From contig OZ024742.1 of assembly GCA_964016885.1 (NCBI GenBank), positions 273,482,001 to 273,546,000 on the forward strand: 64,000 nucleotides of DNA, in the 5' to 3' direction. The stretch is from Eledone cirrhosa. Its lineage: Eukaryota. The notes under the pieces are model-generated. The model saw nothing but the letters and a program-made list of their open reading frames with translations. It searched no databases and was not told the DNA's origin. Positions 22,121 to 62,695 of the stretch are shown here, piece by piece. The position numbers were made by a program, and so were the translations under genes. Every line of letters begins with the position of its first letter. Position 1 is the stretch's first letter.

Positions 22121-22140
22121 CTATATATATATATATATAT

Positions 22141-23072: not shown

Positions 23073-23189
23073 TATATATATAGTACTTTTATATATATAC
23101 TTTTTCCTATTTCCCACACTACTACCCTAAGTATTGACCACTGTGGTGCGTTATGGTCCATCTGGTTCCTTACCACAATTCCTTTGTTT

Positions 23190-25354: not shown

Positions 25355-26485
25355 CAGAGCAAAAGTGATTTTAACGTCATCCAACTAGAGCTCATGAGTG
25401 ATATATACCGTGGCTGCCTTCAACGTGCGGCTTTGGTTGACTCAGTTATGTTGTTCGGTGGGCCGATTTCGGGCAGTTCTGAGGTAGTAGTTCCTGGATA
25501 TTAATAACAAATAAATGATGATTAACACGGATAAGCGATACGATACGGATTTATTCCAAGCATTATCATGTTTCATTGCCTAGTGTGTAAACGTTTGCAT
25601 CTTAAAATAGCTATATAAAAATGTTATTGTGAAATTCAGTTTTCAATACTGTTTATACCAGGTAAATTATCAAAAACTGATTTTGGAGTCAGTGATACGA
25701 TGGTTTATACAAAGTCATATAAATATCAACATGGAAAACAACATAAATAAACTGAGAGATGTACATGTCTGATGGGCAATAAAAGATAAAATAATATGAT
25801 AATAAAAGTGAAGAATGTTGTATACCAAAGGTTCTCAACAGGGAGCATATGCCGTAGGAGGAAGGCGTTTCGTAGCTCCAGGGGAGCGTTACGCAGTAAG
25901 GCGGCGTTAGGGGGCGTTTGAACTTTGGGGGCGATAGAAGCCCCTTTAGTTTGGTAAGTTTTGTAAGTCATAATTGTACGTCTCTTAGACAGCTAGAGTG
26001 AATGGTTTTGAATGAATAAAACGAAGAAAATAAATAAAATAAGCTTGTCAAAACATTCCCTAGGCAGATAAATGAAAATGAAAAGAAATCAAAAGGAATT
26101 AAAATAAGGACTTCAAAAGAAATGACAACAAAAAGAAGCAATGGTGGTGAACATTCACGCACATACATACATACATACATACACACACACACATATATAT
26201 ATACAGACACAGACCGGCGTTAGTGTTTGATGACGTTGAGAACCCGGTCAGCTTTCAGCCAGAGGTGTGGTATCTAATCTCCATAGGTAATAAAATCTGG
26301 CGACAAAATGTTTCTACTTACCAAAATAGAACACATAGATCATATCAACATCCTTACACACTTAAATATAAATGCATGTATATATGCAAATGTATAAATG
26401 CATAGCTATATACATACGTAAATGCATGTACGTATATATGTATGCATGTAGATTTATATATATATATATTTCGTTTCTGAATTTG

Positions 26486-26545
26486 TTATTAGCAAGACAC
26501 TTATTAGCAAGACACTTATTAGCAAGACACTTATTAGCAAGACAT
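26486..26545 (+). repeat. 4x 15-bp tandem repeat TTATTAGCAAGACAC
   Basis: Direct reading; the last unit ends ..GACAT and runs into the PLE ORF. Confidence 0.97.
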
Positions 26546-27239
26546 ACCCGTTCCAAAGACCCTCATGTATAGATAAGAAATGCATAACCTGTAAAATAAG
26601 CCCCCATATTAACTGTAAAACTAGAAATGTAGTATATAGCATAAGATGTACTGAAGGACAATGTAGAAACAAAAATGTAGTGTACATAGGTGAGACAGCT
26701 CGTAGTATAGGGGAACGAATAAATGAACACTGGCGAGACCTCCAAGATAGTAAAGAATCATCTGTGCTCTACCAACATACTAAGATAGAACACAGGTGTA
26801 AATTAGAGAGCATAGAAATAAAAATAGAATCCACACACAAGAAAGACGCAATGTTTAGGCAAATTACAGAGGCAGTAAGCATAAAAGAATTAAAACCAAA
26901 ATTAAATAGAAAATATGAGTGGAACAGCAACATCACAACTTACAATTAAGGACAAAATGAAAACACACACACACATAGAACAAACAACTTACAATTGAAA
27001 ACACACACAAGACAAAATGAAAACACACACACACATAGAACAAACAACCAACCAACAATAAATAAATAAATAAACAAACAAATAGAAAAATATAAATAGA
27101 AAAATAGAAAAATGAACACAAACACACACACAGACACCCGGATGTGGCGCATGCGCAAACTGAGCACGCAACCCACACACAAACAAAATGGCGTAGGATA
27201 GAAGAAAGGAAAGGCACAGAAACGAAGAAAGAAATCCCC

Positions 27240-27284
27240 AGTCACTGAAGAGGTCACAGAGTGTGTGACGAAAGAACTATGACT
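27240..27284 (+). ncRNA. Minimal type I hammerhead, canonical core
   Basis: AGTCA-CTGAAGA-G-GTCAC-agagtgt-GTGAC-GAAA-GAAC-TA-TGACT; CUA triplet. Confidence 0.8.
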
Positions 27285-27447
27285 ATATATATATAAACAA
27301 CTATCTGGTTGTGGAACCAACCAACCAACCAACCAGAAATTTATAAATTTATAAATTTGTAAACTTATAAATATTTAATAAATTAAATTGAAGTGAAAGC
27401 AACTGGTGCGTGTGTTTCTTATTGGCAATATGACCCTCCCAAAGTAT

Positions 27448-27513
<66 letters not shown>

Positions 27514-41167: not shown

Positions 41168-41168
<1 letters not shown>

Positions 41169-41214
41169 AAGACTATTTGAGTTTATAACTCTCTCTATAT
41201 AATATATATATATA

Positions 41215-41246
<32 letters not shown>

Positions 41247-41965
41247 ATATAGAGAGAGTTATAAACTCAAATAGTCTTTTACAATTAAATAGCTCAAAGA
41301 AAGGAATATTTCTGAGCTGTGTAATACAAATGAATATATGATAGAGATAAACACTGATACAAGTATAAATGTGTTTGCATTGCAAATGACCAAGTCAGCT
41401 AGATTGAAAAATACTAATTAAAATAATACGGTTTGCCTGTCTCGATTTAAAATAATAAATCACTAAAAACAAACCTATATTGGCAATAGCCGTGATACCT
41501 GGACGAATTTAAAATTTAAAATTTAAAATTTGTTTCGCAACAATTAAGTGAAAGTTCCCATTCCTGTGCTCTTCTGCAGGTATCCAGAAATTGGTAAGTT
41601 TCACTTCAAAATATTTAAGAAGACTGAGAGAAATGTGTTGTTGAAAGCACATGTGTCACAGCGCCTAGCACGTCCCATACTCGTGCCGCTAAAAATAGCA
41701 GCCGGTTTTATGGGACTAAAAATTAGCTCAACTCATGGAGCCGATAATATTATATATAGAGTTATAAACTCAAATAGTCTTTTAAAATTAAATAGCTCAA
41801 AGAAAGGAATATTTCTGAGCCGTGTAATACAAATGAATATATGATAAGGATAAACACTGATACAAGTATACATGTGTTCGCATTTCAATCTAGCTAACTT
41901 GGTCATTTGAGATGCGAACACATGTATACTTGTATCAGTGTTTATCCCTATCATATATTCATTTG

Positions 41966-41968
<3 letters not shown>
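41168..41968 (-). mobile_element. Non-coding retrozyme-like partial tandem (503-bp period) with inverted end pieces
   Basis: 41258-41382 is repeated at 41761-41885; 41885-41968 is the reverse complement of ~41326-41408; 41168-41200 is the reverse complement of ~41248-41280; hammerhead at 41494-41584. Confidence 0.7.
41494..41584 (-). ncRNA. Type I hammerhead fold with CAGAAGA (U4-to-A) core and 8-bp stem I
   Basis: GATACCTG-CAGAAGA-GCACA...TG(T)TGC-GAAA-CAAATTT..AAATTCG-TC-CAGGTATC; GUC triplet. Confidence 0.78.
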
Positions 41969-42030: not shown

Positions 42031-42032
<2 letters not shown>

Positions 42033-42921
42033 TATTACGTAAGTTGGATGGATGATTTTGGTTTCATAGAAACCTATCGGACGTATTGCAAAGTATCGTT
42101 CGATATGTCCAGGTCAGTTGTCTAACCTGATTAGTTTTTTAATTGCTTTTGGTATAGTGTGGCTAGGTCAAGCTGTCTAAACGTATGTTATTACTCTAAG
42201 GCCTACCTTATTGAGTGCTTTGATGCTCATTCCCAATTGTAGATCGTTAGCTAAGCCACAGCCAAAGCTTCGATTTTACTAAGCTTCCACTTGTATTATT
42301 ATCTCCTAGTCTTAATGATTAACTAATTAATTTAATTAGACAATTCCAGTGATTGGTTAATTATTAAGGTTTGTTTAATAACGTCTAGACGAGAGCTTTC
42401 CTTTCGGAATGTAGAACGAAATTGATTTCCCTTGTTCACACTTTGAATTTACGCACCAAAAACCGGTGGTTACTTCTCTTGTTGCAAATAACACGTGACA
42501 GTGAAACACTGAGAGCTGCCAACGTTAGCAGTTCGACGTTACATTCCACACAGGCATGAGGTATAGAACGAAATTTCCTGTTGATGACGTGAATCCACTA
42601 TTCGATCATGGAACACCACAGGCTTACATATTACGTAAGTTGGATGGATGATTTTGGATTTCATAGAAACCTTTCGGACGTATTGCAAAATATCGGTCGA
42701 TATGTCCAGGTCAGTTGTCTAACCTGATTAGTTTTTTCGTTGTTTTTGGTATCGTATGGCGAGGTCTACGTGCCGCAATTTTCAATTTGACAAGCTGTCT
42801 AAACGTAAAACGTATGTTATTACTCTAACGCCTACGTTATAGAGTGTTTTGCGGCTAATTCCTAATTGTAGGTCGTTAGCTTGGCCACAGCCAAAGCTTC
42901 GATTTTACTAAGCTTCCACTT

Positions 42922-42923
<2 letters not shown>
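42031..42923 (+). mobile_element. Non-coding retrozyme-like partial tandem (repeats 42031-42294 and 42627-42923; 596-bp start-to-start)
   Basis: Direct repeats with indels, (TA)n on both sides, large hammerhead at 42577-42710. Confidence 0.72.
42577..42710 (+). ncRNA. Large type I hammerhead with UUGAUGA (U3:G8) core and long stems II and III
   Basis: CCTG-TTGATGA-C-GTGAATCCA...TGGA(T)TTCAT-A-GAAA-C..TCGGACG-TATT-gcaa-AATA-TCGGTCGATATG-TC-CAGG; the upstream repeat has better-paired TATCGGACG/CGTTCGATA. Confidence 0.72.
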
Positions 42924-42975
<52 letters not shown>

Positions 42976-42980
42976 ATAAT

Positions 42981-43103
42981 AAATTGAAGTGAAGGCAACT
43001 GGTGCATGTGTTTCTTATTGGCAACGTGACCCTCCCAAAGTATAACAATATCGGTTTCAACACACGGTTTCAGATAAAGAATCTTGCTAAACAAATTCAG
43101 AAA

Positions 43104-43106
<3 letters not shown>
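42981..43106 (+). repeat. Solo tail fragment of the 26470-27455 PLE family between (TA)n tracts
   Basis: 42981-43050 matches 27385-27453; 43083-43106 is the reverse complement of ~26471-26497. Confidence 0.7.
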
Positions 43107-43153
<47 letters not shown>

Positions 43154-43159
<6 letters not shown>

Positions 43160-44240
43160 AATTAGTATATCTACCAACATATATATACAGATGCATACCT
43201 ATGCTAGCAAATATATAGGTTTTGTCTTAGTAACTTTGTGGTTCAATGCAAGGGGATGCAGAACAATTATATGAACGACGTAAAATAATAAAGTTATAAA
43301 AATTAACTTACTTACTAAAATTTCACTCCAACTAATTAGTTTCTGAAAGGGAATAAACATGGTACCGAATGGAACAACATGGAGAAAAATCCTTTCAGGG
43401 AGATCTATTCTCAGCTAAGTTCCCAGGCAATGCGTGGACACAGGGAACTTATACAAAATAATTCAGTGGATGGAAAAAAAGCAAGCGAGGACTAAATTCC
43501 AGGACATTGAAAAAATCACTGCCTACTTGGTCGGTGGCAAATTCAAAAGAATCAATCACGGGACATCGAGGTCAATCAGTGAGGAGTGGGGTGCTAATAA
43601 GACAGTAGCCTGACTATTACTATGAACCATAGTAGTAGTATTGGCAAATTTTTGCTCAACAAAATAATTTGGAGATAATTATAAAGAATTAGTATATCTA
43701 CCAACATATATATACAGATGCATACCTACGCTAGCAAATATATAGGTTTTGTCTTAGTAACTTTGTGGTTCAATGCAAGGGGATGCAGAACAATTAAATG
43801 AAAGACGTAAAATAAGAAAATTATAAAAATTAACTTACTTACTAAAATTTCACTCCAACTAATTAGTTTCTGAAAGGGAATAAACATGGTTTCCGAATGG
43901 AACAACATGGAGAAAAATCGTTTCGTCATCAGGGAGGTCTATTCTCAGCTAAGTTCCCAGGCAATGCGTGGATACAGGGAACTTATACAAAAATAATTCA
44001 GTGGATGGAACAAAGCAAGCGAGGACTAAATTCCAGGACATTGAAAAAATCACTGCCTACTTGGTTGGTGGCAAATTCAAAAGAATCAATCACGTGACAT
44101 TGAGGTGAATCAGTGAGGAGTGGGGTGCTAATAAGACAGTAGCCTGACTATTACTATGAACCATAGTAGTAATTTTGGCAAATTTTTGCTCAACAAAATA
44201 ATTTGGAGATAATTATAATGAATTAGTATATCTACCAACA
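43154..44240 (-). mobile_element. Non-coding retrozyme-like tandem, ~2.05 monomers (starts at 43154, 43681, 44215; 527/534 bp)
   Basis: Direct tandem repeat; intact hammerhead at 43853-43936 and core-deleted copy at 43326-43402. Confidence 0.78.
43853..43936 (-). ncRNA. Type I hammerhead, canonical core, extended stem II
   Basis: CTCC-CTGATGA-C-GAAA(CG)...CCTTTC-A-GAAA-CTAATTAG-TT-GGAG; palindromic stem III; GUU triplet. Confidence 0.8.
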
Positions 44241-47200
44241 GATTGGCCAGAGAGGAAAGTGTCCGTCTTCAACCCCTTCAAGCTTGTCTACCACAATCTT
44301 TTTCGCCATGGCCACCAGGCAGATGGACACTGTGTGCCCTTCCTCCTCAATGAAGCAAGATGGCGGGCTATCTGCACAATGGACTCAGTCGATAACCGGA
44401 TCCGTCCTAAACGCGACAGCTCCGCATTTCAGCAATCCTCAGGCACTGAACGAGTGCGTGCAGAACGGTTTCCTCACCCTGCGCGCATTTCGGACAGGCT
44501 CGGCTGACAGCACCTCCATGCCTGTAGAGCTTATCCCAAACCAGCAACGCCAGGCCAGGGATTTGTGGAAGTTGTCCATAGGCCCCGGGCTGAAAGTTCA
44601 CTTGGAGAGAGCGAACAGCTGATCGTCTTTGACGCCCAGTGTCTCCCCGAGAACATCGTCGCTCTTCCTCTCCACTAGCCCTCTATAGAATGCCGAGGTG
44701 GATGTTCCACCGATACTCTTGCCCAGCTGGTAGAGGGCGGTGAGCGCTTGGAGAAATTCCAGCTACCAAGTGCTATACCTCGGTCTTTTCCTGATCCAGA
44801 ACAGCAGCTCCGTCAAGGAGAGGAGCTGGGGAAAGGCATGTCTGGCAAACGACGACCACACCTGTTCACAATCAAGGATGCACCAGAGATGTCGCAACCT
44901 CAGCGCATGCTTGTACATCATCATCCACGGCATGCCCAGTCCTCCACGCAACGGTTGCTGACAGCAGATGGATCGTCTGATCATGTGAGCACGTCCCTTC
45001 CACAAAAAGCGGAAGAGAAGGTGCTCCATTTTGGTCAGAGTTGGGCGGGTGCAATCTACGAGGCTCAGGCGGTAACACATGACTCATTCGCCACCCCCGC
45101 CCGACCTTTCAGAGACAGCCTCCTCTCGGCTCATTTCTGGGTAAAAGAAACAACCCTGCTCGTCACCTCCCTCCAGTTTTCCTCCATCTGGAGGTCTGGA
45201 TCGAACAAGACCCCGAGCAATCTAACCGGTCCTTCCGTCAAGGGCATCATAACGCTGTCAGACGGCAGGGACTTGCCTCTCCAGGTGCCGAGTTGCAAGC
45301 CCATCAACTCTACCTAGTTTAACCTTGCTCCTGTCACCGCTTCGTATTCCCTGAGTGCAGTGCCGAGCATCTGGACGAGTTTGGTATTTGACACCACCAC
45401 GGTGAAATCGTCGACGTAAGCCGACACGTATCTTTCGCACCCACATTCGTTAGGGACACCCTCATGCTCTTCAATGTGTGCAGTAATTGCTCCAGGGGCA
45501 GTACGTACAAGAGGGACGAGAGGGGACAAATCTGGCAGACCGAGGGCATGATGCTGAAAGGCTGCGAAGGTGACCATTCACCCTTAAAATCGAAGAGATG
45601 TTGCTCTGCATCGCAGTAAACAAGCCCCTGAAAATGGGCCCCAAACCCTCCCCCTCGAGGACCGACACCAGGTACCGATGTTCTACCCTATCAAATGCCT
45701 TAATTTGATCTAATTTGAACAGGGGCCCACCCATCACAGGTTCCTTAACCACCCTCTCTATGATGTATCGGATGAGGTGGAGGTTGTTGTGGATGGATCT
45801 GTCTGGAATGGCGCATGTCTGCGCCTCTCCTACCAGATTACCAACGACAAGCGCGAACCTCGTGGCTAACACCTTCGCCAAAATCTTGAAATCCTAGTTT
45901 AACAGGGTTATGGACCTGAAATTGTCAATAACGACTCCCTTGTTCGGGTCTTTTCTCAACAGCACCACCTATCCCCGGCTAACAGAACTGGGATTGCTCC
46001 TGTTCTGCTGCCATTTGCAGTAGACATCTGCCAAGAGGTCGCCGAACAAGTTTGGCATCTACACATAAAGCTCGTAGGGCAAACCATCCAAAGCTGGCGA
46101 TTTACCCCTCGTGTAGTCAGACATCGCTTCCCGTATTTCACCTGTTGTTATCGGTTTTTCGAAATATTGCACTGCAGTCGTCGAGAGCTGCCGCAGCGCC
46201 TTGGCGTATGCACTGAAATTCATACTCCGATCTGGCCCGCCGCCGCTTCCAATTATTTGGCAAAGTGCTGCTGAAAGGCCTCACATATCTGCTCGGGTTC
46301 GAGTAACATGTGCCCGTTTTAGTCAGGCAAGGATTGAATTGTGGCTTTGTTGCCACGTCACGCTTCCACCATCCGGGCCCATTGGACAGATTTTGACCTC
46401 TCTTGTCTCAGAGCACGCGCTCTAACACTGACAACGCAGCCTTCGTACTTTGCATTGAAGGATTGATCGTGTGCCAATCTTGCCGCAAACGCGATGCCTG
46501 TCCTAAACGCTTCTTCTAGCTTTCTAACTAGCTCTCCTTCTCTATTTTCCTCTATATTTACTCCTTTCCTAAACCTTATTAATTCTACTCCAATTTCCCT
46601 TTTCAGGTTAAACCACCGCCTGTTGTTGCCGATCCCACCCGTCAATGCACGCTTACTATTTCGCTTATCCGGTCTCTGTAAGCTTTGCGAGCCGGGTACG
46701 ACGCGTTCAGCTTCCAGTAACCGGGTCCTTGCCTATGAATTATATCTAATTCAACTTCACAGATCACAAACTGGTGGTCCGAGTAGCCGACTACTATAAA
46801 TTGGGGACAACCTACGCTAGCCTTAACTGTTTCCCCACACAATACCCTATCTAGATACAATCTGGATGACTCGATGTGCTATGCCCATGTCCACATTGGC
46901 ACATTCGCATAATCCAGTCGATACCTGTCAGACTGTTCAACACGTCTGAGCAGGTTGTTGAGGCTTTTACATCCTCCTCCCTTATTTACTAACCCCACAT
47001 AATCCCAGCGAGCATCTAAGATACCGTTGCAGTCACCCACTAACAGTAAAGAGCGGGACGTTCCAAGAAAGGTCTCTAGGTGTCGGAAGAAATCTGGCCG
47101 TCCTGCCCCTGTTGGGGTGTAGACGGCTACTGACCTGAAAGCATTGCGTTCACTGCCTGTCACGTCCAGTACACCCGACTTACCTTCTGGGTCCAGGAAC

Positions 47201-48376
47201 ATGGCCCGTATGGTGAGATCCAAACCTCTCCGAAAAAGCACAGCAACTCCGCCCCCGCTCTCGAACGGCTGGGAGATGTGCATACATCGTAGCCGCCGAG
47301 GATAGGTACGAAGTCTCGTGTTTCAGAATTTGTTTAGTGATCTTAGATCGTTAAGCAGGTGGCCCTGCTTCCAAGATGACCATAAGCAACGTAAATTTAT
47401 ACTGCCTATTCTAAGTAAGGCCATGTTCGGTGAGGAATAGAGTAAGGGAGAAATGATCACCTACCCTGATCGTGTGGAGAAGGACAGTTGAACCTTCCCT
47501 TTCGCTGGTCATAGGAGTTTCAAAGATTATGTCGTTGTATATCCTTTTGGTAAATGACCCTCTGAAGTTGGGGAATTTTTCTTTTAAATGTTTCTAAAGT
47601 TCTATTTTAATTTCAATAATGCTTATATTTTTCGGGACAGTTCTTGGTGTTGGTGTGGTGTAGTAATTTTTGTCCGTAATGTCTGTGTGCTGCTTTATAT
47701 GTTCTAAGAGTTCTTTATTTACCCAGTTTATGGCTGTGTAATGTTTTTGCGGTGGTTTGGTTTGGTTGCTGTTTTCGTTGATACTGTTGCTATTGTTACT
47801 GTTATTGTGGCTCTTGTCATTAATGTTGTTTTTGTTGATACTCTTCCTACTATTATTGTTCTTGTGGCTGTTGTTATTGTCATTGTTATTTTCGTTCTCG
47901 ACCTGAGCGCTGTTACTTTTGTTGTTGCTGTTGTTATTGATGGTGTTGTTGTTGGTGTTATTGTTGGTGTTAGAAATATTTGGTAATTTTAAATCTGTAA
48001 CAATATCATTAAAAATGATATTGTTCCTCTTTTCTTTCGTAATATTTTCTTTTATATTTACCTTCGCTAGAACGCTGCCTTGTTGATATGTTGACAAAGT
48101 CTCCCTCTTTCGGTGTTGTCTGACAGCGCTCTCTCTCTCTCCCTTTCTTGTGTTATCCATGTTAAAAGAATTGTTTTTTTCTAAATAATATTTTTACATA
48201 ATACGACATCCCGTAAAGGGGTGCCGTATTATTTACGAGTGAACCCCTGTATGAGGTGGGTCACTTCTTCTAAACTTTTATCAAGTTTAAAACTTTAATA
48301 AAAGGTTAAGAACGGTTGAAAACGAGGTAAACTGTTGAAAAAAACTGGAGCCGATGAGAAGCGTAGCTTCACCTAC
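44241..48376 (-). mobile_element. L1/Tx1-type LINE copy A: 5' UTR, internally deleted ORF1, fragmented ORF2 (APE-RT), 3' end missing
   Basis: ORF2 ATG at 47424; GGGVAVLF, LLVGDCN, WKLNAS, AKVLATR, KAFDRVEH, SAYVDD, CPKCAQGEETVLHALVQC. Confidence 0.93.

Positions 48377-48409
<33 letters not shown>
48377..48409. repeat. (AAT)11 tract at the junction of LINE copies B and A
   Basis: Direct reading; follows AATAAA on the minus strand. Confidence 0.97.
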
Positions 48410-48411
<2 letters not shown>

Positions 48412-51400
48412 TTTCTTTATTAACCATGAGGGTTTACACAAAGTAAGACATTAAGGACAATACAGGACTGTAAAAATGGGCATTTCTCCGTGAAAAAAAG
48501 AAAAAAACAGAGGATGTAACACAAAAACAAACAATGAAGACTTCCGAGGGCCATCGTGGAGAAAGCCCATTAAAAAGCCACGGTGACCCTGACCACCAGG
48601 GAAGTGCCCTCTCCCAGTTTTCCACATTCAATTTACAGGCACATAGGCAGAGTTGGTCCATTCACTCGGGCCATTCTTGCTTCTCTCACCCATCTCTCAA
48701 CAAAATACTGGGAAGAGAGCACCTCCTTCGCTTCCCTGATTTTTCTTTTCAAATGAAATTTGAAAAGGTTAATCAGAGCATCCCTCTCGGTTTTCACTTG
48801 ACCCAGGACTGCAGCTCTGTCTAGGAGACGAGCTGGGGAAAGACGCGTCTAGCAAACGGTGACCAAAATTGCTCATCGTCGAGGAAGAGGTGGAGATGGC
48901 GTATCCTGAGCGCGTGTTTGCGTATCATCAGCAACGGCATGCCTAGCCCTCCACGTAGCGGGTGTTGACAGCAGATGGACCGCCTGACCATCGGAGCGCG
49001 TCCCTTCCACAAAAAGCGAAAGAGAAAACGCTCCAGCGCAGTCAGGCGAGGCCTAGGGCGAGGCACGACGGTCAGGCGGTAGTAGATGACGGATGTGATG
49101 TACGCATTCACCACCTCCGCTCGACCTTTCAGGGATAGCTTCGTCACTGCCCATTTCTGGGTGAGAGAAGCCACCCTGCTCGTCACCCAGTTGTTTTGTC
49201 TGGAGGTCCGTATCGAACCAGAGCCCTAGCAATGTAACCGGTCCGTCCGTCCACGCCCGACGACGCTGTTGGACGGCATGGTCCTGTCTCTCTATGTGCC
49301 GAGCTGCAGGCCCACTGACTTTTCCTGGTTGATAATTGCTCCTGTCACCAATGGCTCGAGATTCAATACGTACAACATGGACGAGATGCGACATATTTGG
49401 TGGACCGAGCGCATGATGTTGATTGGTTTCGAAAGGAGACCGTTCATTATCACCACAAAGCAGATGTCTCTGTCCATGGCACAAATCCATTCTCTGAAGA
49501 CGGGCCCAAAGCGAGCCGTCTTCCGGACTGCCGCCTGATAACGATGGTCGACCATATCGAAAGCTTTCGACTGATCTAAACTGACGAAGGACCCTCCCGT
49601 GCCATTATTACCTAGATACCCTCTCCACGATGTATGGCATGAGGTGGGGGTTGTCGTGGATGGATCTGTCTGGAATGGCGCATGTCTGGGCCTCCCCCAC
49701 CAGACCATCACCGACAAGCGCCAACCTCTTTGCTAGCACCTTGGACAAATCTTGAACACTCTGTTTAGCAAGTTATGGGCCTGAAATTATCTATGTTATC
49801 CCCCTTGTTCGGATCCTTTCTCAGCTGCGCCACCGCTCCTCGGCTCACAGAGCTGGGAATTCTCCCATTCTGTTGCCAGTTGCAGTAGACGTCCGCCAAG
49901 AGGCCTTCAAACAAGTATGGCATGTGTTCGTAAAGTTAGTAGGGCAGTCCATACACACCAGGCGATTTAACCCTTGTGCAACCAATCATTGCCTCGCGTA
50001 CTTCAGAGGCTCTTCTCGGCTTTTCGCAACACTCCGCCTCAGTGGCCGAGAGCAGCGGCAGTCCGTCGAGATAGGCACTAAAGTCCATCCCTCGATTCGG
50101 CCCGAACAGCTGAGCGAAGTGTCGCTGAAAAGCTTCGCACATTTTCCCGGGATCGAGTAGCATGCTCCCGTGGTGGTTCACCAAAGACCGCATCGAGACT
50201 TTGTTGCCACGACGCGCCTCTGCAACTCGAGCTTTCGTCCCCTCATGACTGAGAGTACGCACCCTAGCTCTGACAAAGCACCCTTCGTTCTTTGCATTGA
50301 AGCATTGGTCAATTGCCAATTTCGCCGTATGTCAAGGACCAAATTCGCCGGAAGTACGTCGGACGCGATGCCTTTACAAAGAGCCTCGTCTAATTTTCTA
50401 ACTAGTTCTCCCTCTGCTCTATTTTTCTCTATTCGTAAAGCCTTACTAAACCTAATTGACTCTATTCTAATCGCTCTTTTTCAGAGTACACCACTATTTG
50501 CAGTTGACAATGGCCCCCGTCAATGCTCGCTTAACTAGTGCGCTAATCCGGTCTCTGTAAGCCTTGCGCGCTGTTAATTACGCGTTTAGCTTACAGTAGC
50601 CGGGTCCCTGTCTATGAAGCCTATCTAAGTCAACCTCACAGGTCACGAATTTGTGGTCCGTGTAGTCGACTATTATAAAATATGGACAGCCTATGCTAGA
50701 CCTATCTATTTCCCTATAAAATACCCTATCTTGATATGATCTGGATGACCCGATGCGGTTTGTCCATGTCCACATTGGCACATTCGGGAAATCCAGATGG
50801 TCCCTGTCAGACAGTTGAAACCGTCTGAGCAGGTTTGCGAGGGATTACACCCTCCTCCCCAATCAGCTAATCCCACACAGTCCCAGTTCTAAGATCACGT
50901 TCCAGTCGCCCACTAACACTAAAGAGCGGGACGTTCCAAGAAAGGTCTTCAGACGGCGGGAGAAATAAGGCCGCCCTGATCCTGTCGAGGCATAGACGGT
51001 CACTAGCCTGAAAGCGTGCCCGTCTCCGCAGATCACGTACAGCACCACCAACTTACCTTCTTGGTCCAGGAAGATGGCCCGTATGGCGAGATCCTAGCCT
51101 CTCCTAAAAAGCACAGCAACCCCCCCCCCCCCCCCCGCGATCCTGGACGGCTGGGAGATGCGTACACATCGTAGCCGCCGAAGATTGGTGCGAAGGCTCG
51201 TGCTTCGGAGATTCTGGTCTCGCTGAATGACACCACATCTATGTTTAGTGACCTGAGGTCGTTGAGCAGGTGGCCCTGCTTCCATGACGACCCCAGGCCA
51301 CCCGCATTTATTCTGCCTATTCTGTGTGAGGTCATGTTGAAAAGGAGTGGAAAAAGATGTGAAAGACCACTTACCTCCCTTCTCGTGGAGGAAGGATGGT

Positions 51401-51850
51401 TTTTCCGTCCTTCTCACTGCTTGTGGCTTCCTCCAGAAGGATGTCTTTATAAATTCTCATGGAGATTGTTTGTCGGAAGTCTCCGATGTCCTTGGGGAAT
51501 TTTAATTTTAGTGTCGTGTACGTTTCCAGTGTGATGCGACTGATTGGTATTTGTGGAGTTGGTGTGAATTTTTGGAGTGTTGTGTAATCTTTTTCTGTGA
51601 TGCTGGTGTTGTGTTGGATGTACTGTAATAATTGGTTGTTAAAATGTAATGCTGTGTATTGTGTGTCATTTTTGTTGCTTTGTTTTATTTGCGTTTGTTG
51701 TGGGTGTGTTTCTGTTTCGCTTGTGGGTGATTTTTGTGGTGTTGGCAATGCTTGTGTTGGTGTTAATGATGATGATGATGATGTTGGTGTTTGTGGTGAT
51801 GGGACTGGTGATGGTGGTGTGGGTGGTGGCATAGCAGTCTTTTTGTTTGT
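48410..51850 (-). mobile_element. L1/Tx1-type LINE copy B: ORF1 C-terminus, fragmented ORF2, 3' UTR
   Basis: ORF2 start at 51335 (MTSHRIGRINAGGL..SETR), LVGDWN, KSPGVYGLPY, LDQSKAFD, LSLKGRAEV; internal deletions. Confidence 0.92.
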
Positions 51851-52131
51851 GCCTGTAAATTGAAGGTGGGAAACTGGGAGAGGGCACTTGCGCTGGTGGT
51901 CATGTTCACCGTGGCTTTTTTAATGGGCTTTCTCCACGAATGTCCCTCGGAAGCCTCACCCCTATAGGGAATTTTTCACTGTTTCTTTTTTGTTACATCC
52001 TCTATTTTTGTCTTGTTTTTACACGCAGAAATACCTATTTGTACCGTCCTGTATTGTCCTGTAATGTCCTTATTGTCTTGCATTGTGTAAACCATTGTGG
52101 TTAATACAAAAGCATTATTATTATTATTATT
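51848..52131 (+). mobile_element. Isolated Tx1-type LINE 3' UTR plus (ATT)6
   Basis: TGTGCCTGTAAATTGAA..CTGGGAGAGGGCAC.. is the reverse complement of ~48410-48643. Confidence 0.85.
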
Positions 52132-55100
52132 AAATGTCATGGTTGACGGAGGCTCGGCTCTGTAAGGTATTGTAAATTTTAACTGTTATAAAATTGTAAA
52201 TTGTTTAAAACTTGAACCAAATTGTAGATAAAGAAACACTCCTCCCCGTGAGAGGGGTCTTTCTGTCCGTTATTTGGCCCTTCGGGGTTAAATAACCAGT
52301 TATTGGGGATATGTGCCCAATATTCATTTTAAACCGTAAAAGAACATGGCTACAAAAAATAATTTTCACAAGTCACTCCCACTCCTTCTGTCTTCTTCTT
52401 CCCCAATCGTCATTACGTCAGAGAAAAGGTTGTTCTCTCCCTCCTTTCTCTACATGTGGTGTCGCTTCTGTCGCCTCTTTCGCAAGCGACGCCATTAAAG
52501 AAAAAGAAAAATGTAGTTCTCGTAGTGTTCTTCATTCAAGAGAACGCGCGTACCGTGGAGCATTTCTTCACGACGACGACAACAACGAAAGATGTGTGCG
52601 GTAAATACGGAAAGCCATTTCATTTGTATGACGTCATGAAGAATAGCAGCAGCCGTAATAACAGCAGCAGCAGCAACAGTGGCGAGGAAAATACTAGTAG
52701 CAGTCGCAAAAACATCAGCAGCAGCATAAACAACAACAGCAGCAGCAACAACAGCAATAACATCAGCAACAGCAGCAACAGCAACAGCAACAACAACAAC
52801 AACAACAACAACAGCAACAGCGGCGGCGGCGCTCGTAGTACCCACAGCAAAAGCAAAAGTAACAGCAGCTCTGACATCAACAACAAGAAAGAAAAAACAA
52901 TCTCGTTTGCAGGTATGACAGAGAACCTGGAAATCATCCTTATAACAAATGAGGAATTACAGGAAGCAAGTAAGATGGTGACGAAGACCGGACACCGAGC
53001 AATCTGCAACGCAGCCGAAGAATTTTTCGAAACGCGACAGCACTGTACGCTCACGTACCGTACAGTAAGCACAAACTCGCGTAGGGTTTAAAGAGCCACA
53101 GAGCCTCAAATAAAAAAAAAGCCTTAGGGTCTGTGTGGCAGCGGAAAACGCATATCACCCGAGGCAAGAAATATGCCACCGTGGACGTGCTTTTTGCCAC
53201 ACCCCAGGGGGCAAAGGCTCAATCATTAGTGACCCTAAGGAGCGAGCAAATGGTGATGGTGGCCTCCTACTGCAGGCCAAAAATTGTGAGGGTCAAACTG
53301 ACCCAAGTCCCCGTCGGGATGGTCCCTTATTGGCTAGCCGCGTCTGTCCTCGTCGGAATCGAGGACAAAACAACAGTACTGCAAGTACAGAAAAAAGTAC
53401 GCGAAGATTGGATCGGCACCTCCATTGAGATGTTAATTCAAACCAACCAGGAGTGCATCGAATCTATCCCGGATGTGACAGACTTCGATAACGGCACTCA
53501 ACTTCCCACAAGTGTTGAGGGCAAACGCCCGAAATGGTTTCGCTGTGGGTCGAAGACTCACCTCGAGCCTTCTGCAATGAGAAGACCCTGAAAAAGGAGA
53601 AAAGCCCCCTCCTACCGAAATCGGCTCCACTGCTACCAGCAACAGGACAGGCGGCAAGCAGGAAGGATAGGTCCGTGACACCCATACCCACGCCACGGAA
53701 ATCAAGAACAGCACGACGACAGAATACCAGCACCAATCAAAGCACCAACGAACATAAGACTGGTAAGAATATCACAGTAACAATACAAAACCATTAAAAT
53801 GAAATTCCCCAACGCAGTTGGTCATTTTAGAGACCTAGGAGGGACACTCAGCCGGAGAGTATACTCGGATATACTCACAGAAGAGCCGACGACCAGCCGA
53901 AGGGACGATTCAACGGTCCTTTCACCAGACGATCATGGTAAGTGATCCTTTCTCACTTTCCCCGTTCCTCACGCAACATGGCCGTATTCAGGATCGGAAG
54001 TGTAAACATGCGTGGCTTGAACTCGGTTTGGAAGCAGGGTTACATGCTTAACGACCTCAGGTCACTAAACATAGATGTGGTGGCCATCAGCGAAACCAGA
54101 ATCTCCGAAACGCAAGCTTTCGCACCGATCTTCGACGGTTATGAGGTGTACGCATCTCCCAGTCGTCCGGGAGCGGGGGGCGGAGTGTCTGTGTTGTTTC
54201 GGAAAGGCTTGGGTCTCGCCATACGGACCATACTTACCCAGAAGCTAAGTCGGTAGTGCTGGACGTAAGCGGCAGCGAAGGCAACGCTTTCAGGCTAGTA
54301 GCCGTCTATGCCCCGAGAGGGACAGGACGGCCAGATTTCTTCAGACGTCTAGAGACTTTCTGGGAACGTCCCGCACTTTAGTGTTAGTGGGCGACTGGAA
54401 CGGTATCTCGGATGCACGCTGCGATTGTGTGGGGCTAGTGGATAGGGAAGCCTCACAAACCTGCTCAGACATGTTGAACTGTGACAGGTATCGACTGGAT
54501 CACCCGAATGTGCCAATGTGGACATGGACAAACAGCAACGATTCATCCAGATCGTATCTCGATAGGGTATTCTGCAGAGAACTAGATAAGGCTAGTATAA
54601 GTTGTCCACAATTTAAAATAGTTGACTACACAGACTGCACATTTGTGATCTGTGAAATCGACATAGCCAGACTTCATAGACAAGGAGCCGGTTACTGGAA
54701 GCTGAACGCGTCTTTCCCGGATCGCAAAGCCTACAGAGACCGGATAGGCGTATTAGTTAAGCGGGCGTTGACGGGAGCGGTCGTCAACAACAGGTGGTGA
54801 TTCGCCCTGAAAATGGCAATTAAAGTAGTGCCGATTAGGTTTAGCAAAGGACTAGTAATAGAGGAAAATAGAGTAGAGGGACAGCTTGTCAGAAAGCTAG
54901 AAGAGGCGTTTAGGACAGGCACTGCAACCGACGTGCTTGCTACGAGATTGGCACTTGACCAATTCTTCAACGCAAAACACGAAGGCTGCGTTGTCAGAGC
55001 TAGAGCGCGTGATCTGAAACGCGAGGGGACAAAAGCCGTCCAACGGGCCCGGGTGGCAGAGACGTGACGTGGCAACAAAGCCACAATTCGGTCTTTATCT

Positions 55101-57380
55101 GACCAAAACGAGCGCTTGTTGCTCGAACCCCAGCAGATGTGCGAAGCTATTCAGCAGCACTTTGCTGAACTGTTCGGGAGCAGCGGCGGGCCGGATCTGG
55201 ATATGGATTTCAGTGCATACCTCGACGGACTGCCTCAGTTCTCGAAAACCGCAGCACAGTGTTGCGAAAAGCCAATAACAGCCGGTGAAGTACAGGAAGC
55301 GATGGCTAACTGGACGCGGGGTAAATCGCCGGGAATACGAGCTTTATGCATTTATGCCAGACTTGTTCGGTGACCTCTTGGCAGAGGTCTAGTGCAACTG
55401 GCAGCAGAACAGGAGCATTCCCAGCTTTGTGAGCTGGGGAGGGGTGGCGCTTCTGAGAAATGACCCGAAGAAGGATGTTATCGATAACTTCAGGCCCATA
55501 ACCCTGCAATTGCAGAGTTCAAGATTTTGTCCAAGGTATTAGCAACGAGGTTGGCGCTTGTCGTTAAAAGGGTCTGGTGGGAGAGGCGCAGACATGCGCC
55601 ATTCCGCTCAGATCCATACACGACAACCTCCACGTCATGCAATACATGATAGAGAGGTTGGTTAAGGAACCTGGCACGGGTGGAGCCCTGATCAACATGG
55701 ATCAATCCAAAGCATTCGATAGGGTCGACCATCGGAACCTGGCGGCGGTCCTCGAGGCAGCCGGTTTCGGGACCGTTTTCAGGGGTTGCATCGCTCCGAT
55801 GTACAGTGATATCTGCTCAGTTGTCAGGGTAAATGGTCACTTGTCGCAGCCGTTAAGCATCATGCGCTCAGTCCGCCAGTGTTGTCTCCTCTCGTCCCTC
55901 TTCTTCGTATTGTCTCTCGAGCCGTTACTGTACAAACTGGGGGCGATGAGGGGCGTCCCACGCGAACTAGGATGCGGGAAATCCGATTCAGCTTACGCCG
56001 ACGACATCACCGTGGTTGTGTCGATTACCAGACACGTCCAGATGCTCGGCACCGCTCTCAAGGAATACGAAGCGGTGACAGGAGCAAAGATAAACCAGGA
56101 AAAGTCGGTGGGCTTGCAGCTCGGCACCTGGAGAGGCAAGTCCATGCCGTCCGACAGCGTCGTGGGGCGTTGGACGGACGGACCGGTTCAATTGCTCGGG
56201 GTTTGGTTCGGACCGGACCTGCAGATGGAGAAAAACTGGAACGAGGTGACGAGCAAGGTGGCCTTCCTCACCCAGAAATGGGCCGAGAGGAAGCTCTCCC
56301 TGGAAGGCCGGGCGAAGGTGGCGAATGCGTACATCGCATCCGTCATCTGTTACCGCCTCACCGTCGTCCCTTGCCCCGGCCCAACTCTCACCAAAATGGA
56401 GCGCTTCCTCTTCCGCTTTTTGTGGAAGGGACGCGCTCCCATTGTCAGACGATTCATCTGCTCTCAACACCCGTTGCGTGGAGGACTGGGCATGACATGG
56501 CTGATGATGCGCAAACATGCGCTGAGGGTGCGACATCTCTGGTGTTTCCTTGAGGGTGAACAGGTCTGGTCGCCGTTCACCAGGCACGTTTTCCCACAGC
56601 TCGTCTCCTTGGCGGAGCTGCAGTCCTGGGTCAGAAAAAGACCGAGGGTTTACGCTTGGAAACTGGAATGTCTCCAGCGCTCACTGCCCTCTTCCAGCTG
56701 GGCACCATATCGGTGGAACATCCACCACGGCGTCTCTATAGAGGACTAGTGGAGGAAGAGCGACGACGTTCTCGGAGAGATCCTGGGCGTCGAAGAAGAT
56801 CAGCTGTTTGCTCTCTTCCGGAGAACTTTCAGCCCAGGGCCTATAGATATCTTCCAAAAATCCCTGGCCTGGCAGTGTTACCGGGAGCTCTACAGGCACG
56901 AAAGTGCCGTCAGCCGAGCATGTCGGAGATGCGCGCAGACCGATGAAACCGTCGTTCACGCACTCGTTTAGAGCTATGTCGAACAGTTGCTGGCGCGTGT
57001 AGGACTGATCCAGTTATCGACTGAGGCCATTGTGCAGATGGTCACGCCGTCTTCCTTCGAGGAGGAAGGGCAGGCGGTTTTCATGTGCCTGGTGGCCACC
57101 GCGAAAGAGATTGTGTGGTGGATAAGGTTGAAAGGGTTAAAGACTGTCACTTTCCTCCTCGGTGAATCCCTAATTAACTTTTTCAAGTTTCACTTGAAGA
57201 AGAAAATCAGATGGACAGGCAAGTGCTACCTTCTAGAAAGTTTGTTGAAAGGTGGGTGAATGTAGATAGAATGGTCCGAGTGAACGGGACCGCTCTGAAT
57301 ATATGTCTGTAGTTTGAGAAATGGAAATATTGAGAGAGGGCGTTTGCCCTGGTGGTCAGGCTGGCCGTGGTCTTTTGTGT
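52132..57380 (+). mobile_element. L1/Tx1-type LINE copy C: 5' UTR, ORF1, ORF2 (53978-57312, many disruptions), truncated 3' UTR
   Basis: ORF1 VEGKRPKWFRCGSKTHL; ORF2 MAVFRIGSVNMRGL..ISETR, LVGDWN, WKLNAS, DQSKAFDRVDH, SAYADD. Confidence 0.94.
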
Positions 57381-58922
57381 AGATTTCGCCACGTGTAATC
57401 CTCGGAAAAAAGGGATTTTCTTCTTTTTGGGGTTCTTTTTTTTCTATTTTTTCCTGATACAGTTTCCCACTGAAAACAACTGAAACAACACCTCTGATAC
57501 TGTTGTTGCTACAGTTGTTTGTTGCCATTTCTGCTGTTGGTTTTGATGGTTGAGTCCCTGGGGTGGGTAGGAGAGGTGGCCTCAACTTTTTAGCCTGAGA
57601 GCAGAAAGCCTTTATGTGGGTTCCTTCGCCACAAACGACATACCTAAGCCTTCTACCCTCAACGATTACACTGAAGTGGCTGCAGTCATTGAGGTCTATC
57701 ACCTCTGGAATTTCCTCAATGTTTTTATGGTCCACTTGGATCAGGAGCTCCATCCCAGATCCAGACTAGTTCTCCTCCTTTACATTTGTTACCTCAATTA
57801 TGTTCGTTTTGGCCTCGATGTCGGCGAGGACGGCAGCCATTAGCCAGGGAATTTCGATGGCCGGCGGAACGTGGATCACCCTGATCTTCACGAGTCTCTG
57901 ACCACAAAAGCCTGGGACGAGTGTGAAGTCGTCACTTCTTAATGGGACCATAGAGTGCTCTCTGGCTTCCTGTGGGTTTCCAAAGAACACGTCCACGGTT
58001 ACATATTTCTGCCCACGTCTGATGTGGGTTTTGTTTCGCCCACACATGATCCAAAGTTTTTCGTATCAGGGACTCGGATGCCCGTTCCACTCGGCGTGAC
58101 TTTGTGTTTATCGTACGATATGACACGGTGCTTAGGCGCCGATGCTCCATTTTATTAGACGGGATGGGGTGAGGCTGATCCTGTACCCATCTTTTTTACC
58201 ATTGGCTTGGCTTCATTCAATTCATCCTGGCTTACCTGGATTGTTTCGCTTTTCTTGGCTGCTTTTGCAAAAGACACGTTTTGTTTTGCGCTGGTGTTGA
58301 TGTTGTTGTTGTTATTCTGATTGGTGTTATTGCTGTTGTTGTTATTGTTATTTTTGTTATTGTTATTTTTAGTTTCAGTTGTGGTGGTGGTGGTGGTGGT
58401 GGCGTCAGTGGTGTTCGGCGTGGACGAGTCGATTCTGGGTGAATCCATTTCTATGTCACGCGATAATAATTTATTTTTTGTTTCTATTGTCGCTGTGGTG
58501 GTTGTTATTTTGACATTGTGGTGGTGGGGGTGGCGGCTTTAATACCTGCAGTTATTGGTAATGGCGGGAAATCCATGTGTTTATGCGGCAAATCTAAATA
58601 ATTGAGACTGCTGTTAATTATATTTTCAGTGTTGGCAACGGTGGCAAGGTTTACAATGGTGGTGGTTGTGGAGGATGTTAGTCTGTTAAAAACAGATTCG
58701 TCGTCCATGTTTTTTTTTCAAAGAAACATTTTGTTTGATAGATAAAAAGTTTAAATTTTGGACTCAAGGCCCCAATATTATTGAGTATCCTTTGAAGAAA
58801 GCAATATATGTGAACTAAAAAAACTCAACAATAAAAATTTTCCATAACTAGTAATTGGAAACAACTAAAAACAACAAACATTTGTGGAGCTCACGATAAT
58901 AAAATTTCCTACGTAGGTCGCC
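57381..58922 (-). mobile_element. L1/Tx1-type LINE copy D: 5' UTR and N-terminal/central ORF1 only
   Basis: ORFs 58505..58708, 58155..58448, 57766..58047 and 57226..57753 are homologous to copy C ORF1 (KYVTVDV, VEGRR..VCGEGTHIKAFC). Confidence 0.88.

Positions 58923-58982
<60 letters not shown>
58923..58982. repeat. (AAT)20 tract at the junction of LINE copies E and D
   Basis: Direct reading; follows AATAAA on the minus strand. Confidence 0.97.
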
Positions 58983-58984
<2 letters not shown>

Positions 58985-59260
58985 TTTCATTTATTAGCCA
59001 CAAGGGCCGACATGTAGGGGACAATACAAAGACAGGGACAGTGGGGGTTTACAATAAGGTCGAGTAAAAGTGGACAATGGCAAGACTAATTTAACAATGA
59101 AAATATAAAGATGTAAAATAAACTATGCATAAATATAACAAAATAAATTCCCTGATAGGGGGTGGACGACCCTGGGGTGATTCGGGTACCCCACCAATCC
59201 TGAACCACCCTGCGCTTCAAGGGCACCCAGGAGAGCACCCCTCTCCTCAAGTTAGCCAGC

Positions 59261-62200
59261 CTATAGGCGCATGGTCAGAGTAGGCCCATTCACACGAGCC
59301 TTTCTCGCCACATTCACCCACCTTTTAGCAAATGTACTGGGGGGCAGCACTTCTCGCTCCACCCTCACCCTCCTTTCCAGGTGAAACTTGAAGAAGTTGA
59401 TGAGGGATTGGCCGAAGGGAAAAGTGTCTGTCTTTAGTCCTTTCAACCTGGTCCACCATATAATCTCTTTCGCAACTGCCACCAGACAGAGGAAAATGTC
59501 CTGCTCTTCCTGACCTAAGGAAGGTGGCGGCTCGATCTTCACTATGAACTCGGCCGATAGCCGGATTCGTTCCACACGCGAGAGTAGCTGTTCGACATAA
59601 CTCCACAAGTCAGTAATGCACGGACATTGGAAAAGTGCGTGCAGAACGGTTTCGTCGTTCTGTGCGCATCTTGGGCATCCGTCTGACAGCACTTCCGTGC
59701 CGGTAGAGTATATCCCGAACCGGCAGTGCCCCCCGGTAGCACTGCCAAGCGAGGGATTTCTGGAAATTGTCCATCGTCCCCGGCTCAAAAGTCCTCCGGT
59801 ACAGACTGGTCACTTCGACTTCGTCGAGGCCCAAAGCTTCTCCGAGTGCATCATCGCACTTGCCCACCACTAATCCTCTATAGAACTCGAGAGTAGAAGT
59901 ACCACTGATCGCATTGCCAGCTTGGTAGAGTGCAGTGAGTGCCTGGCAACATTCCAGGTGCCAGTCACCCAGTCTCGGTCTCTTCTTGACCCAGGACTGC
60001 AGCTCAGTCAAAGAAATGAGCTGCGGAAAGGCCCGTCTGATAAACGGCGACCACACCTGTTCACCATTGAGGCAGAATATCTGGAGATGTCGCAGCCTCA
60101 ACGCATGTCTGCGCATCATTAGCCATGGCATGCCCAGCCTTCCGCGTAGAGGGTGCTGGCAGCAGATGGACCGCCTCACCAACGGAACTTGTCCCCTCCA
60201 CAAGAATTTGAAGAGGAGCCGTACCAACTTGACGAGGCGCGGACGGGGGCAAGGCACGACGGTTAGGCGGTAGTAGATGACGGACGCGATGTACGCATAC
60301 GCCACCTCCGCGCGACCTTTCAGTGATAGCTTCCTCCCAGCCCATTTTTGGGTGAGACTGGCTACTCTGCTCGTTACCTCGTCCCAATTCTTTTCCACCT
60401 GGAGGTCTGGGCCGAACCAAACCCCAAGAAACTTTACTGGTCCGTCCGTCCAGCGCCCCACGACGCTGTTGGACGGCATGGGCTTGCCTCTCCAGGTTCC
60501 GAGCTGCAAACCCATCGACTTTTCCGGGTTAAGTTTGGCTCCTGTCAACCTTTCATATTCCTTCAATAAGGTGCCGACCACCTCGATTTCTGAGGTGTTC
60601 GACACCATCACGGTGATGTCGTCCGCATAAGCCGACACCGCCTTTCCACGTCCCGGTTCGAGCGGGATGCCCTGCAACAGCTCCAGCTTCCGCAGTAAAG
60701 GCTCGAGAGTCAATACGTACAGAAGGGAAGAGAGAGGGCCCCTTGACGGACCGATCGGGAGAGCCGAAATGGTTCCGAGAGGTGGCCATTAACTTTGACC
60801 ACCGAGCGTGTGCCGCTGTGCATTGCAACGATCCAGCTTCTAAAGACAGGGCCGAAGCCAGCTTCTTTGAGGACAAACTCCAGATACCGATGGTCGACCC
60901 TATCGAATGCTTTCGATTGATCTAAATTGATCAGTTCCCCACCGAAGCCAGGTTTACACCCTACGCTCTCTATGATGTATCGCATGAGGTGGAGATTGTC
61001 GTGTATCGACCTGGCTGGGATTGCGCAAGTTTGTGCCTCCCCAACCAAATCCTCGACGACAAGCGCCAATCTCTTTGCTAACACCTTGGCCAAATTCTTA
61101 AACTCTGTGTTGAGCAGAGTTATGGGCCTGAAATTGTCTAATGAATCCCTCTTGTTCTCGTTTTTCCTTATCAGCGTCACCACTCCCCTGCTCACAGAAC
61201 TGGGAATACTCACATTCTGCTGCCAGTTACAGTAGAGTCCTTGGAGGAGTTCGGAGAACAAGTCTGGCATATTTACGTAAAGCTCGTAGGGCAGGCCATC
61301 CAAACCGGGTGACTTGCGCCTCATGTAGCCGACAAGGGCGTCCTGAATTTCGGCTGAAGTAATCGGCCTTTCGCAGCGCTCAGCGTCGACCGTCGAGATG
61401 CGCGGCAAGCCGTCAAGGTAGGGACTGAAATCCGCTACTCTCTCTGACTCGCCACTCTCCCCGAACAACCGAGCAAAGTGCTGGCGAAAGGCCTCACACA
61501 TCCGCTTGGAATCGCTTATCTCGTGTCCATCTCGGTCCGCCAAAGACCGAATTGTGGTTTTATTACCACGCTGCGCCTCCGCCACGCGGGCCCATCGAAC
61601 AGCTTTAGTTCCCTCGTTTCTCAGCGCACGCGCCTTAGCTCTGACAATGCAACCTTCGTGTTTGGCATTGAAGAAATGGTCTAATGCCATTCTCGCCGCT
61701 TGCACGTCAGTTGCGATGCCACTACAAATAGCCTCGTCTAACTTATCTAACAGCTCCCCCTCCTTTCTATTTTTCTCTAACGCTAGTTCTTTGCTGAACT
61801 CTATCGAAGTTACTCTAATCTCTCTTTTGAGAGCCCCCCACCATCTGTTGTTGATGATCCCCCCTGTCAACTTTTGCTTAACTAACTTGTTGACTCGGTC
61901 CCTGTAAGCCTTACGTGCCGAAAATGACATGTTCAGCTTCCAGTAGCCCGCGCCTAACCTACGCGTTTTATTTAGGTCGACCGTACAGATCACACATTTG
62001 TGATCTGAATAGGCGACCGTTTTAAAAAGTGGACAGCCCACACTATTTCTATCTATTTTCCTAATGAAGATTATGTCTATATACGATCTAGATGACCCCA
62101 TTCGGTTGGTCCATGTCCATACTGGTACATTGGGGAAATATAGTCGATACCTGTCAGACAGTTGGAACTGGCTGAGTAGGTGCTTGAGGCTTTTGCACCC

Positions 62201-62686
62201 CCCCCCCCGGCTCCTATCGGCTACTCCCACACAATCCCAGCGTGCGTCTAATATGCCATTCCAGTCCCCCGCTAACAGTAAAGGGCGAGACGTACCCAGA
62301 AAGGTCTCCAGGCGCCTAAAGATGTCAGGTCGTCCGGCCCCTGCAGGGGCGTAGACGGCCAGCAGTCTAAAGGCACCACCTTCGCTACTGCTCACATCCA
62401 AGACCACCAACTTACCGTCCGGGTCCCGGAAGATCGACCTTACCTCGAGATCCAGTCCTTTCCTAAACAGCACTGCCACCCCACAGCCCATTCCCGGCCT
62501 GCTAACAGATGCGAAGATCTGATAGTCGTCGAAAATGGGGGCTAGTGCGCGCGTGTCGGAAATTTTGGTCTCGCTTACGGCAATCACATCCATTTCCAGC
62601 GACCGGAGGTCGTTGAGCAGGCGACCCTGCTTCCAGGGTGACACCAGGCCGCGAACAGTTAAACTTCCTACTCTTAATATGGCCAT
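59261..62686 (-). pseudogene. LINE ORF2 (AP endonuclease, reverse transcriptase, C-terminal Cys/His motif) split by two frameshifts (~60730, ~59700)
   Basis: ORFs 60710..62686 (658 aa: SETK, GDWN, SDH, KSPGLDGLP, FRPITLLN, SVRQG), 59610..60713 (AYADD) and 59261..59788 (CPRCAQNDETVLHALFQC). Confidence 0.95.
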
Positions 62687-62695
62687 ATTGGTAAG

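Follow-up and report, generated by a model that had tools for sequence, protein, structure and literature searches.

The array at positions 43154–44240 of the 64-kb stretch of DNA analysed here (the window) raises the question of how a non-coding unit of about 530 nt came to be copied slightly more than twice in tandem, and whether such copying calls for a circular RNA template. We consider it probable (roughly 0.7) that the array is a decayed, dead copy of a non-LTR retrozyme, that is, of a Penelope-like derivative that lacks autonomy and was placed in (TA)n by an enzyme of the Penelope type. Protein-free mobile elements with self-cutting RNA are already known in many animal genomes, among which the array is an ordinary example and not a new system. 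Non-LTR retrozymes have been described as type I hammerhead repeats of 150–450 bp that are arranged in tandem and expressed as circles (PMC7229834), and as units of 51–972 bp derived from Penelope pseudo-LTRs (preprint bioRxiv 10.64898/2026.07.22.740005); here and below, statements credited to the literature reflect excerpts of the papers cited.

Layout of the array and its junctions

The array and its immediate neighbours comprise the following features:

43106–43156, no strand: (AT)n run, (AT)25, merging with the left end of the array, the sense 3′ end of the element
43154–43680, minus strand: unit 1, 527 nt, 35% GC
43166–43215, minus strand: 22-bp hairpin of unit 1 (16 + 6 bp, −22.3 kcal/mol), which stops 12 nt short of the sense 3′ end
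43326–43402, minus strand: broken hammerhead motif of unit 1, which lacks 6 nt following CUGA but retains an intact stem I, stem III and cut triplet
43681–44214, minus strand: unit 2, 534 nt, 35% GC
43693–43742, minus strand: 22-bp hairpin of unit 2, with one difference from that of unit 1 (A-U to G-U)
43853–43936, minus strand: putative type I hammerhead of unit 2 (CUGAUGA 43932–43926; GAAA 43870–43867; palindromic stem III 43867–43858)
44215–44240, minus strand: partial third unit of 26 nt, identical to the first 26 nt of the unit at 25 of 26 positions (1 mismatch)
44241–47510, minus strand: LINE A, a neighbour outside the element, of the endonuclease/RT type, ending inside its C-terminal coding region

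Units 1 and 2 are 96% alike, with 16 substitutions and four indel events over 535 alignment columns, and have diverged by ~1.5% each. The alignment bears out the initial annotation, which had described two full monomers plus 26 bp of a third. The partial third unit starts within the 3′ arm of the 22-bp hairpin, and the total copying length is 2.05 units. The head-to-tail arrangement of few-hundred-bp units is that of a retrozyme; no third copy of the unit was found within the 64-kb window.

At the sense 3′ end, unit 1 and the (AT)n run overlap by TATA, and this run is likely to have been the insertion target, a (TA)n setting that is seen at this single array end. The other end is open to several readings: the partial unit may mark a truncation point or a Penelope-type tail, and 44240 may be the point of a later deletion. 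A target duplication of 5–14 nt was not found at the array, where one flank is a microsatellite and the other is possibly deleted. The left flank (42934–43155) is pieced together from short segments found again in the window beside (TA)n runs, at 27339–27455, at 17983–18106 and, reversed, at 26433–26497.

The junction at 44240/44241 lies within the C-terminal coding part of LINE A, sister copies of which extend at least 140 nt beyond the break, and here too the initial annotation, in which the array abuts the broken 3′ end of this LINE, holds. Such a contact could arise if a reverse transcriptase copied a retrozyme, jumped onto LINE A RNA and inserted both in one event. A chimera of this kind would fit the shared minus-strand orientation, the join without microhomology and the failure to find the missing 3′ part of LINE A to the left of the array, but the two partners are unequally decayed. 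About 4–5% of substitutions create stop codons; at that rate, the 12 in-frame stops of LINE A, which come with 7 frame changes in 3.2 kb, correspond roughly to ~8% decay, compared with ~1.5% for each unit. LINE A has decayed several times further than the units and is therefore probably older than the array. Moreover, none of the 24 aligned pieces listed (9369 further) bridges 44240/44241. We regard a chimeric origin as highly improbable and LINE A as probably a bystander whose link to the array is incidental. Four related endonuclease/RT LINE copies, which are 70–78% alike, differ in age and are found in both orientations, occupy 44241–62800, and a weak match to a methyl-CpG-binding domain (53085–53588) is situated directly upstream of one of them.

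Hammerhead motifs and fold of the unit

Each unit carries, on the minus strand, a candidate type I hammerhead motif with a palindromic stem III. The palindrome ACTAATTAGT is located at 43858–43867 in unit 2 and 43331–43340 in unit 1; on the minus strand of unit 2, stem III reads ACUAAUUAGU, followed by GUU and then GGAG. Stem I of unit 2 consists of 4 bp (43936–43933 with 43856–43853; CUCC ... GGAG on the minus strand), a 55-nt spacer with a mismatched stem II and a long loop separates CUGAUGA from GAAA, and the predicted cut falls after GUU, between 43857 and 43856. The equivalent predicted site in unit 1, at a distance of 176 nt from the array end, is between 43330 and 43329. A type I descriptor, composed after the motif had been seen, found 3 matches among 20,000 dinucleotide shuffles of unit 2, or 1 among 20,000 when a palindromic stem III was required; as a sequence pattern, the motif exceeds chance. 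Rfam yielded no hammerhead match at E values up to 5 across the window and up to 10 across the array.

Neither ribozyme at the array is canonical. The hammerhead of unit 2, which had been called intact, does possess both CUGAUGA and GAAA, but that description is not clearly borne out: its stem II is mismatched (C.A, G-C, three A-U and C.C, leaving 4 pairs between mismatches), and an Rfam match is lacking. These pairs have a probability of ~0.03 in the local ensemble, and forcing the ribozyme fold on unit 2 costs ~3 kcal/mol. A C follows A9 and is itself followed by a G-C pair, but an A intervenes between this pair and GAAA. In unit 1, core letters 7–9 and three stem II letters have been lost; the core is damaged, as previously described, but the loss amounts to three of the seven core letters, with CUGA retained, and not to most of the core. 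Given these 6 missing nucleotides and the pairing of the remainder into a hairpin (p ~0.99), the unit 1 ribozyme is, from its sequence, very likely dead, and the folding models make that of unit 2 doubtful.

The palindromic stem III had also been proposed to suit dimeric cleavage, a mode reviewed in PMC6765202, and the calculated energies are in keeping with this proposal: stem III is predicted at −9.0 kcal/mol as a 10-bp duplex versus +1.5 kcal/mol as a monomer hairpin. In a fold of the whole array, the two palindromes pair at a probability of 0.19, and stem I has a probability of 0.0 in both units. Minimal Penelope hammerheads show low dimer activity in the part of PMC4209133 cited here, and the corresponding part of preprint 10.64898/2026.07.22.740005 gives cleavage in 1 of 9 dimers assayed, at most 7 units in 75% of families, and a definition of 'active' as two consecutive units with complete hammerheads. 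No such pair is present at 43154–44240, where unit 1 is without core letters 7–9 and stem II of unit 2 is weak, a deficit that concerns the activity of this copy and not the retrozyme family. Hammerhead-like motifs occur elsewhere in the window at 7383, 25063 and 28851 (plus strand) and at 27556 and 28094 (minus strand); the one at 7383 sits between two (TA)n runs and combines a stem I of 8 bp with a stem III that is palindromic.

The cut-to-cut monomer (43856–43330, 527 nt) is more stably folded than every one of 100 shuffles (z −5.9) and, as a circle, reaches a z of −6.5, with none of 60 shuffles as stable; 18 microsatellite-free window tiles, each with 6 shuffles, provide a background of −4.1 to +0.7. 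A GC content of 0.35 (<50%) together with a strongly self-paired predicted monomer (z about −5 to −6.5) is a retrozyme trait that is displayed here by either strand: the plus strand of the monomer folds equally well (z −6.2), and folding therefore does not reveal which strand is functional.

Two frames of the unit appeared protein-like by eye. This candidate coding relic was rejected on the absence of Pfam, protein and representative matches: GIY-YIG or RT relics were found in none of 12 frame readings against Pfam, none of 93 and none of 131 candidates scored in comparisons made with longer proteins only, and the most sensitive search, with one plus frame as the query, brought no match among 1.84 billion representatives. 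Solved structures afforded a single match, at an E value of 1.7. As far as these searches reach, the unit is non-coding, and it may harbour a very old or very remote relic.

Several other repeats share the window. The tandem at 1021–2109 (1.83 units, period 595, 99% identical) has (AT)n on both sides and folds as a circle with z −6.0 on the minus strand and −0.5 on the plus strand (10 shuffles each). The CTGANGA core was not found in this tandem, which is possibly a young related element with another ribozyme or none. Direct repeats with periods near 600 nt are located at 22136–23094 (97% over 350 nt) and 42031–42927 (82% over 300 nt), and nested inverted repeats at 41168–41968, with arms of 56, 62 and 86 nt, are MITE-like or fold-back in appearance.

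A multi-copy family and its possible sources

Eleven public sequencing runs matched, eight of them with part of unit 2; none is on record as RNA, which has no bearing on expression. Sequences of four of the eleven, X1, X4, X6 and X9, were aligned to 43681–44900 at 80% likeness; the small shares in X5, X7 and X8 carry no weight here. In X1, from organism A, which may or may not be the species of the window (share of words 0.44), 7166 contigs aligned over the unit and LINE A together, and the mean summed contig depth, which is no copy number, was 2.1e5 for the unit versus 1.3e5 for LINE A; the eight X1 pieces listed had depths of 4.9–13.2. The mean depth of the unit was 85 in X4 (organism B) and 26 in X6 (organism C), both far below LINE A, and divergence could explain part of these low values. 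The resulting unit-to-LINE A ratios are 1.7 in X1, 0.025 in X4 and 0.002 in X6. Scans with sequence patterns returned no matches in metagenomes and none in viral contigs. A match to one contig, L001, was discarded as a chance 20-mer with no further likeness; frames at 1–2527 of that unrelated contig appear to belong to a gene whose TAA and TAG codons would encode residues. The read ends of X9 were likewise rejected as biological ends, since AATT sites account for 6 of the 7 listed, as in a restriction library.

The unit is thus a highly repeated, variable multi-copy family, with dispersed and clustered copies looking alike in contigs. The head-to-tail join is contained in at least one contig each of X1 and X4, from two organisms (among 15 of 68 joints listed), and in X1 the depth is 7.2e4 past the join versus 8.8e4 before it, by rough estimate. 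The initial annotation had read the array as a Penelope-type hammerhead repeat family and had named a unique local tandem duplication as the finding that would overturn it; the family reading is supported, and the multiple copies and the join in other runs dispose of a unique duplication.

A local origin can also be framed for this locus alone. A single retroposed monomer might have been duplicated by unequal crossing-over or slippage, or spread as a satellite, with no multi-round reverse transcription at the locus. Units 1 and 2 share a G at 44036 and at 43936, where 67% and 82% of X1 depth, respectively, is A, and are therefore close kin. Among 40 of 359 differences listed, at least six other variant positions are common to both units, and at least five near-fixed X1 differences from unit 2 match the letters of unit 1 and are therefore private to unit 2. 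Further tandems of ~600-nt period exist in the window, and the preprint (10.64898/2026.07.22.740005), in the part cited, proposes local amplification into tandems. However, a single reverse transcription event would account for the shared letters equally well, two organisms contain the same join, and depth is polar along the unit, whereas an array would give flat depth; on these grounds, we judge duplication at the locus or satellite spread to be distinctly unlikely. The polarity consists of a depth over the sense 3′ third (43681–43885) that is 3.8, 2.2 and 5.0 times higher in the three contig runs, as expected for 5′-truncated retrotransposition, although conservation or sharing with other families could also produce it. 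Depth falls over loop II in all three contig runs, and an X1 variant, observed at a loose end, keeps CUGAUGA and the following C, the one at the base of stem II.

Alternatively, the unit could be the pseudo-LTR of an autonomous Penelope-like element, in which case the array would be a partial tandem cut short, with its coding body either left uncopied or lost by deletion at 44240. In its short helix I, long helix II region, palindromic stem III and additional nucleotide following A9, the motif is similar to the minimal Penelope hammerheads of PMC4209133 as excerpted; insertion at (TA)n and a short extension are likewise known from Penelope elements, and the higher depth of the sense 3′ third may derive from full elements. 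This origin is nevertheless unlikely, given that unit joins unit directly at the array, in X1 and in X4, that all 12 frame readings against Pfam and the protein searches are devoid of a GIY-YIG or RT relic, and that the share of X1 records continuing into unlike sequence is 0, in contigs that are short. An ORF with a telomerase-like RT and a GIY-YIG endonuclease between pseudo-LTRs, the mark of an autonomous Penelope-like element, is absent at the array, and no Penelope ORF adjoins it, the neighbour being an endonuclease/RT LINE.

A GIY-YIG frame does occur in the window at 26452–26946 (Pfam E 1e-4), followed by ~300 nt of non-coding sequence, a hammerhead-like motif at 27245 (plus strand) and TA repeats. 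The region 26452–27300 is likely the 3′ end of a Penelope-like element, and this element is plausibly of the helper type for the retrozyme; it has no sequence likeness to the unit. Longer relatives of the frame numbered 0 of 28, and the 64-kb window contains no autonomous partner resembling the unit.

A copying model and its relation to known systems

The retrozyme reading draws on a motif beyond chance, multiple copies, a recurrent join, depth polarity, the (AT)n end, folding, the lack of protein matches and the GIY-YIG frame in the window. Against it stand the lack of a complete ribozyme pair, the weak stem II of unit 2 with C.A at its base, the failure to find a target duplication, the lack of a similar autonomous partner in the window, the strand neutrality of folding and a depth bias open to other causes. 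From its sequence, the array has the structural marks of a non-LTR retrozyme; self-cleavage and circular RNA are predicted by analogy.

The cycle that we propose would open with minus-strand transcription of a donor array; as in known retrozymes, paired hammerheads may cut the transcript into monomers of 527–534 nt that could then be circularised. A Penelope-type RT/GIY-YIG protein would nick (TA)n DNA, and reverse transcription, presumably by this enzyme, would start beside the 22-bp hairpin, at the position 176 nt downstream of the cut site where the array ends. Copying would have run for 2.05 units on a circle or a linear multimer, two templates that are not separable at 43154–44240. Both units would then have decayed apart by ~1.5% each, leaving the two ribozymes damaged as they are now, and the LINE A join would date either from an insertion that deleted target sequence or from a subsequent deletion.

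The initial annotation favoured a circle or repeated template jumps as the easiest explanation for more than two rounds, a preference that is not established, since a linear multimer with an internal RT start gives the same shape. In the part of PMC11167929 cited, a Penelope enzyme initiates reverse transcription inside linear multimer RNA, and ribozyme cleavage is unnecessary in vitro. Because an internal start with 5′ truncation of a linear multimer, a fixed tail or a later deletion would each produce the observed shape, the 2.05 units do not point specifically to a circle, which may have served as template but need not have. Junction reads cannot separate a circle from a tandem transcript either, because the join exists in genomic DNA.

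As for how animal retrozymes are copied, the cited papers, in the parts used, propose Penelope enzymes and circular templates as a hypothesis. A single decayed locus cannot settle the mechanism, and the shape of this one has already been described for Penelope-like elements and retrozymes. However, in a very abundant family whose 3′ end is defined and has a hairpin and a short overhang, copy ends by themselves could show whether there is an internal start of the type described for the Anolis Poseidon element PAc. A more far-reaching version, which we hold to be rather unlikely, posits a ~530-nt retrozyme family at LINE-like abundance in one lineage, with an atypical hammerhead (long variable loop II, C.A closing pair) and a 26-nt overhang that represents two fixed RT start sites at the 22-bp hairpin. 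If true, a non-coding retrozyme would be linked directly to the 'tail' mechanism of Penelope elements, and the locus would represent a naturally half-inactivated dimer, with unit 2 able to cut only the unit 1 site.

Comparison with known systems was made by concept and not by sequence, and the sequence family may already be catalogued, for instance in the supplements of the preprint. The locus shares with metazoan non-LTR retrozymes a non-coding unit repeated in tandem, a single type I hammerhead per unit, a GC content below 50%, multiple copies, a self-paired predicted circle and a short array. The unit of 527–534 nt exceeds the 150–450 bp range of PMC7229834 and falls within the 51–972 bp of the preprint, as far as the excerpts state. 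The array differs from retrozymes in falling outside the 'active' definition, in its long loop II and in that no target duplication was found. Relative to the published hammerhead consensus, unit 2 has C.A at the base of stem II, with C also in the X1 variant.

Penelope pseudo-LTRs, as portrayed in portions of PMC4209133 and PMC8557442, resemble the array in the 4-bp helix I, the dimer-suited palindromic stem III, the nucleotide after A9, the (TA)n target and the short extension. In contrast to them, the array has no RT/GIY-YIG ORF attached. Its extension is 26 bp at one locus, whereas Penelope-like insertions carry a 30–40 bp extension at either end, at a position fixed within each family, and have (TA)n targets (PMC8557442, in part), and it has an extra A between a possible G-C pair and GAAA where the Penelope minimal hammerhead has G10.1-C11.1. 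PAc, according to the cited part of PMC11167929, is autonomous, and its start sites are situated 111–118 nt into the ORF (with the cut at +26) at an AC-rich stem-loop, whereas the array ends 176 nt past the predicted cut, beside an AU/GU-rich hairpin. Both nonetheless have an insertion end downstream of the hammerhead cut, at a stem-loop, in an AT-rich target.
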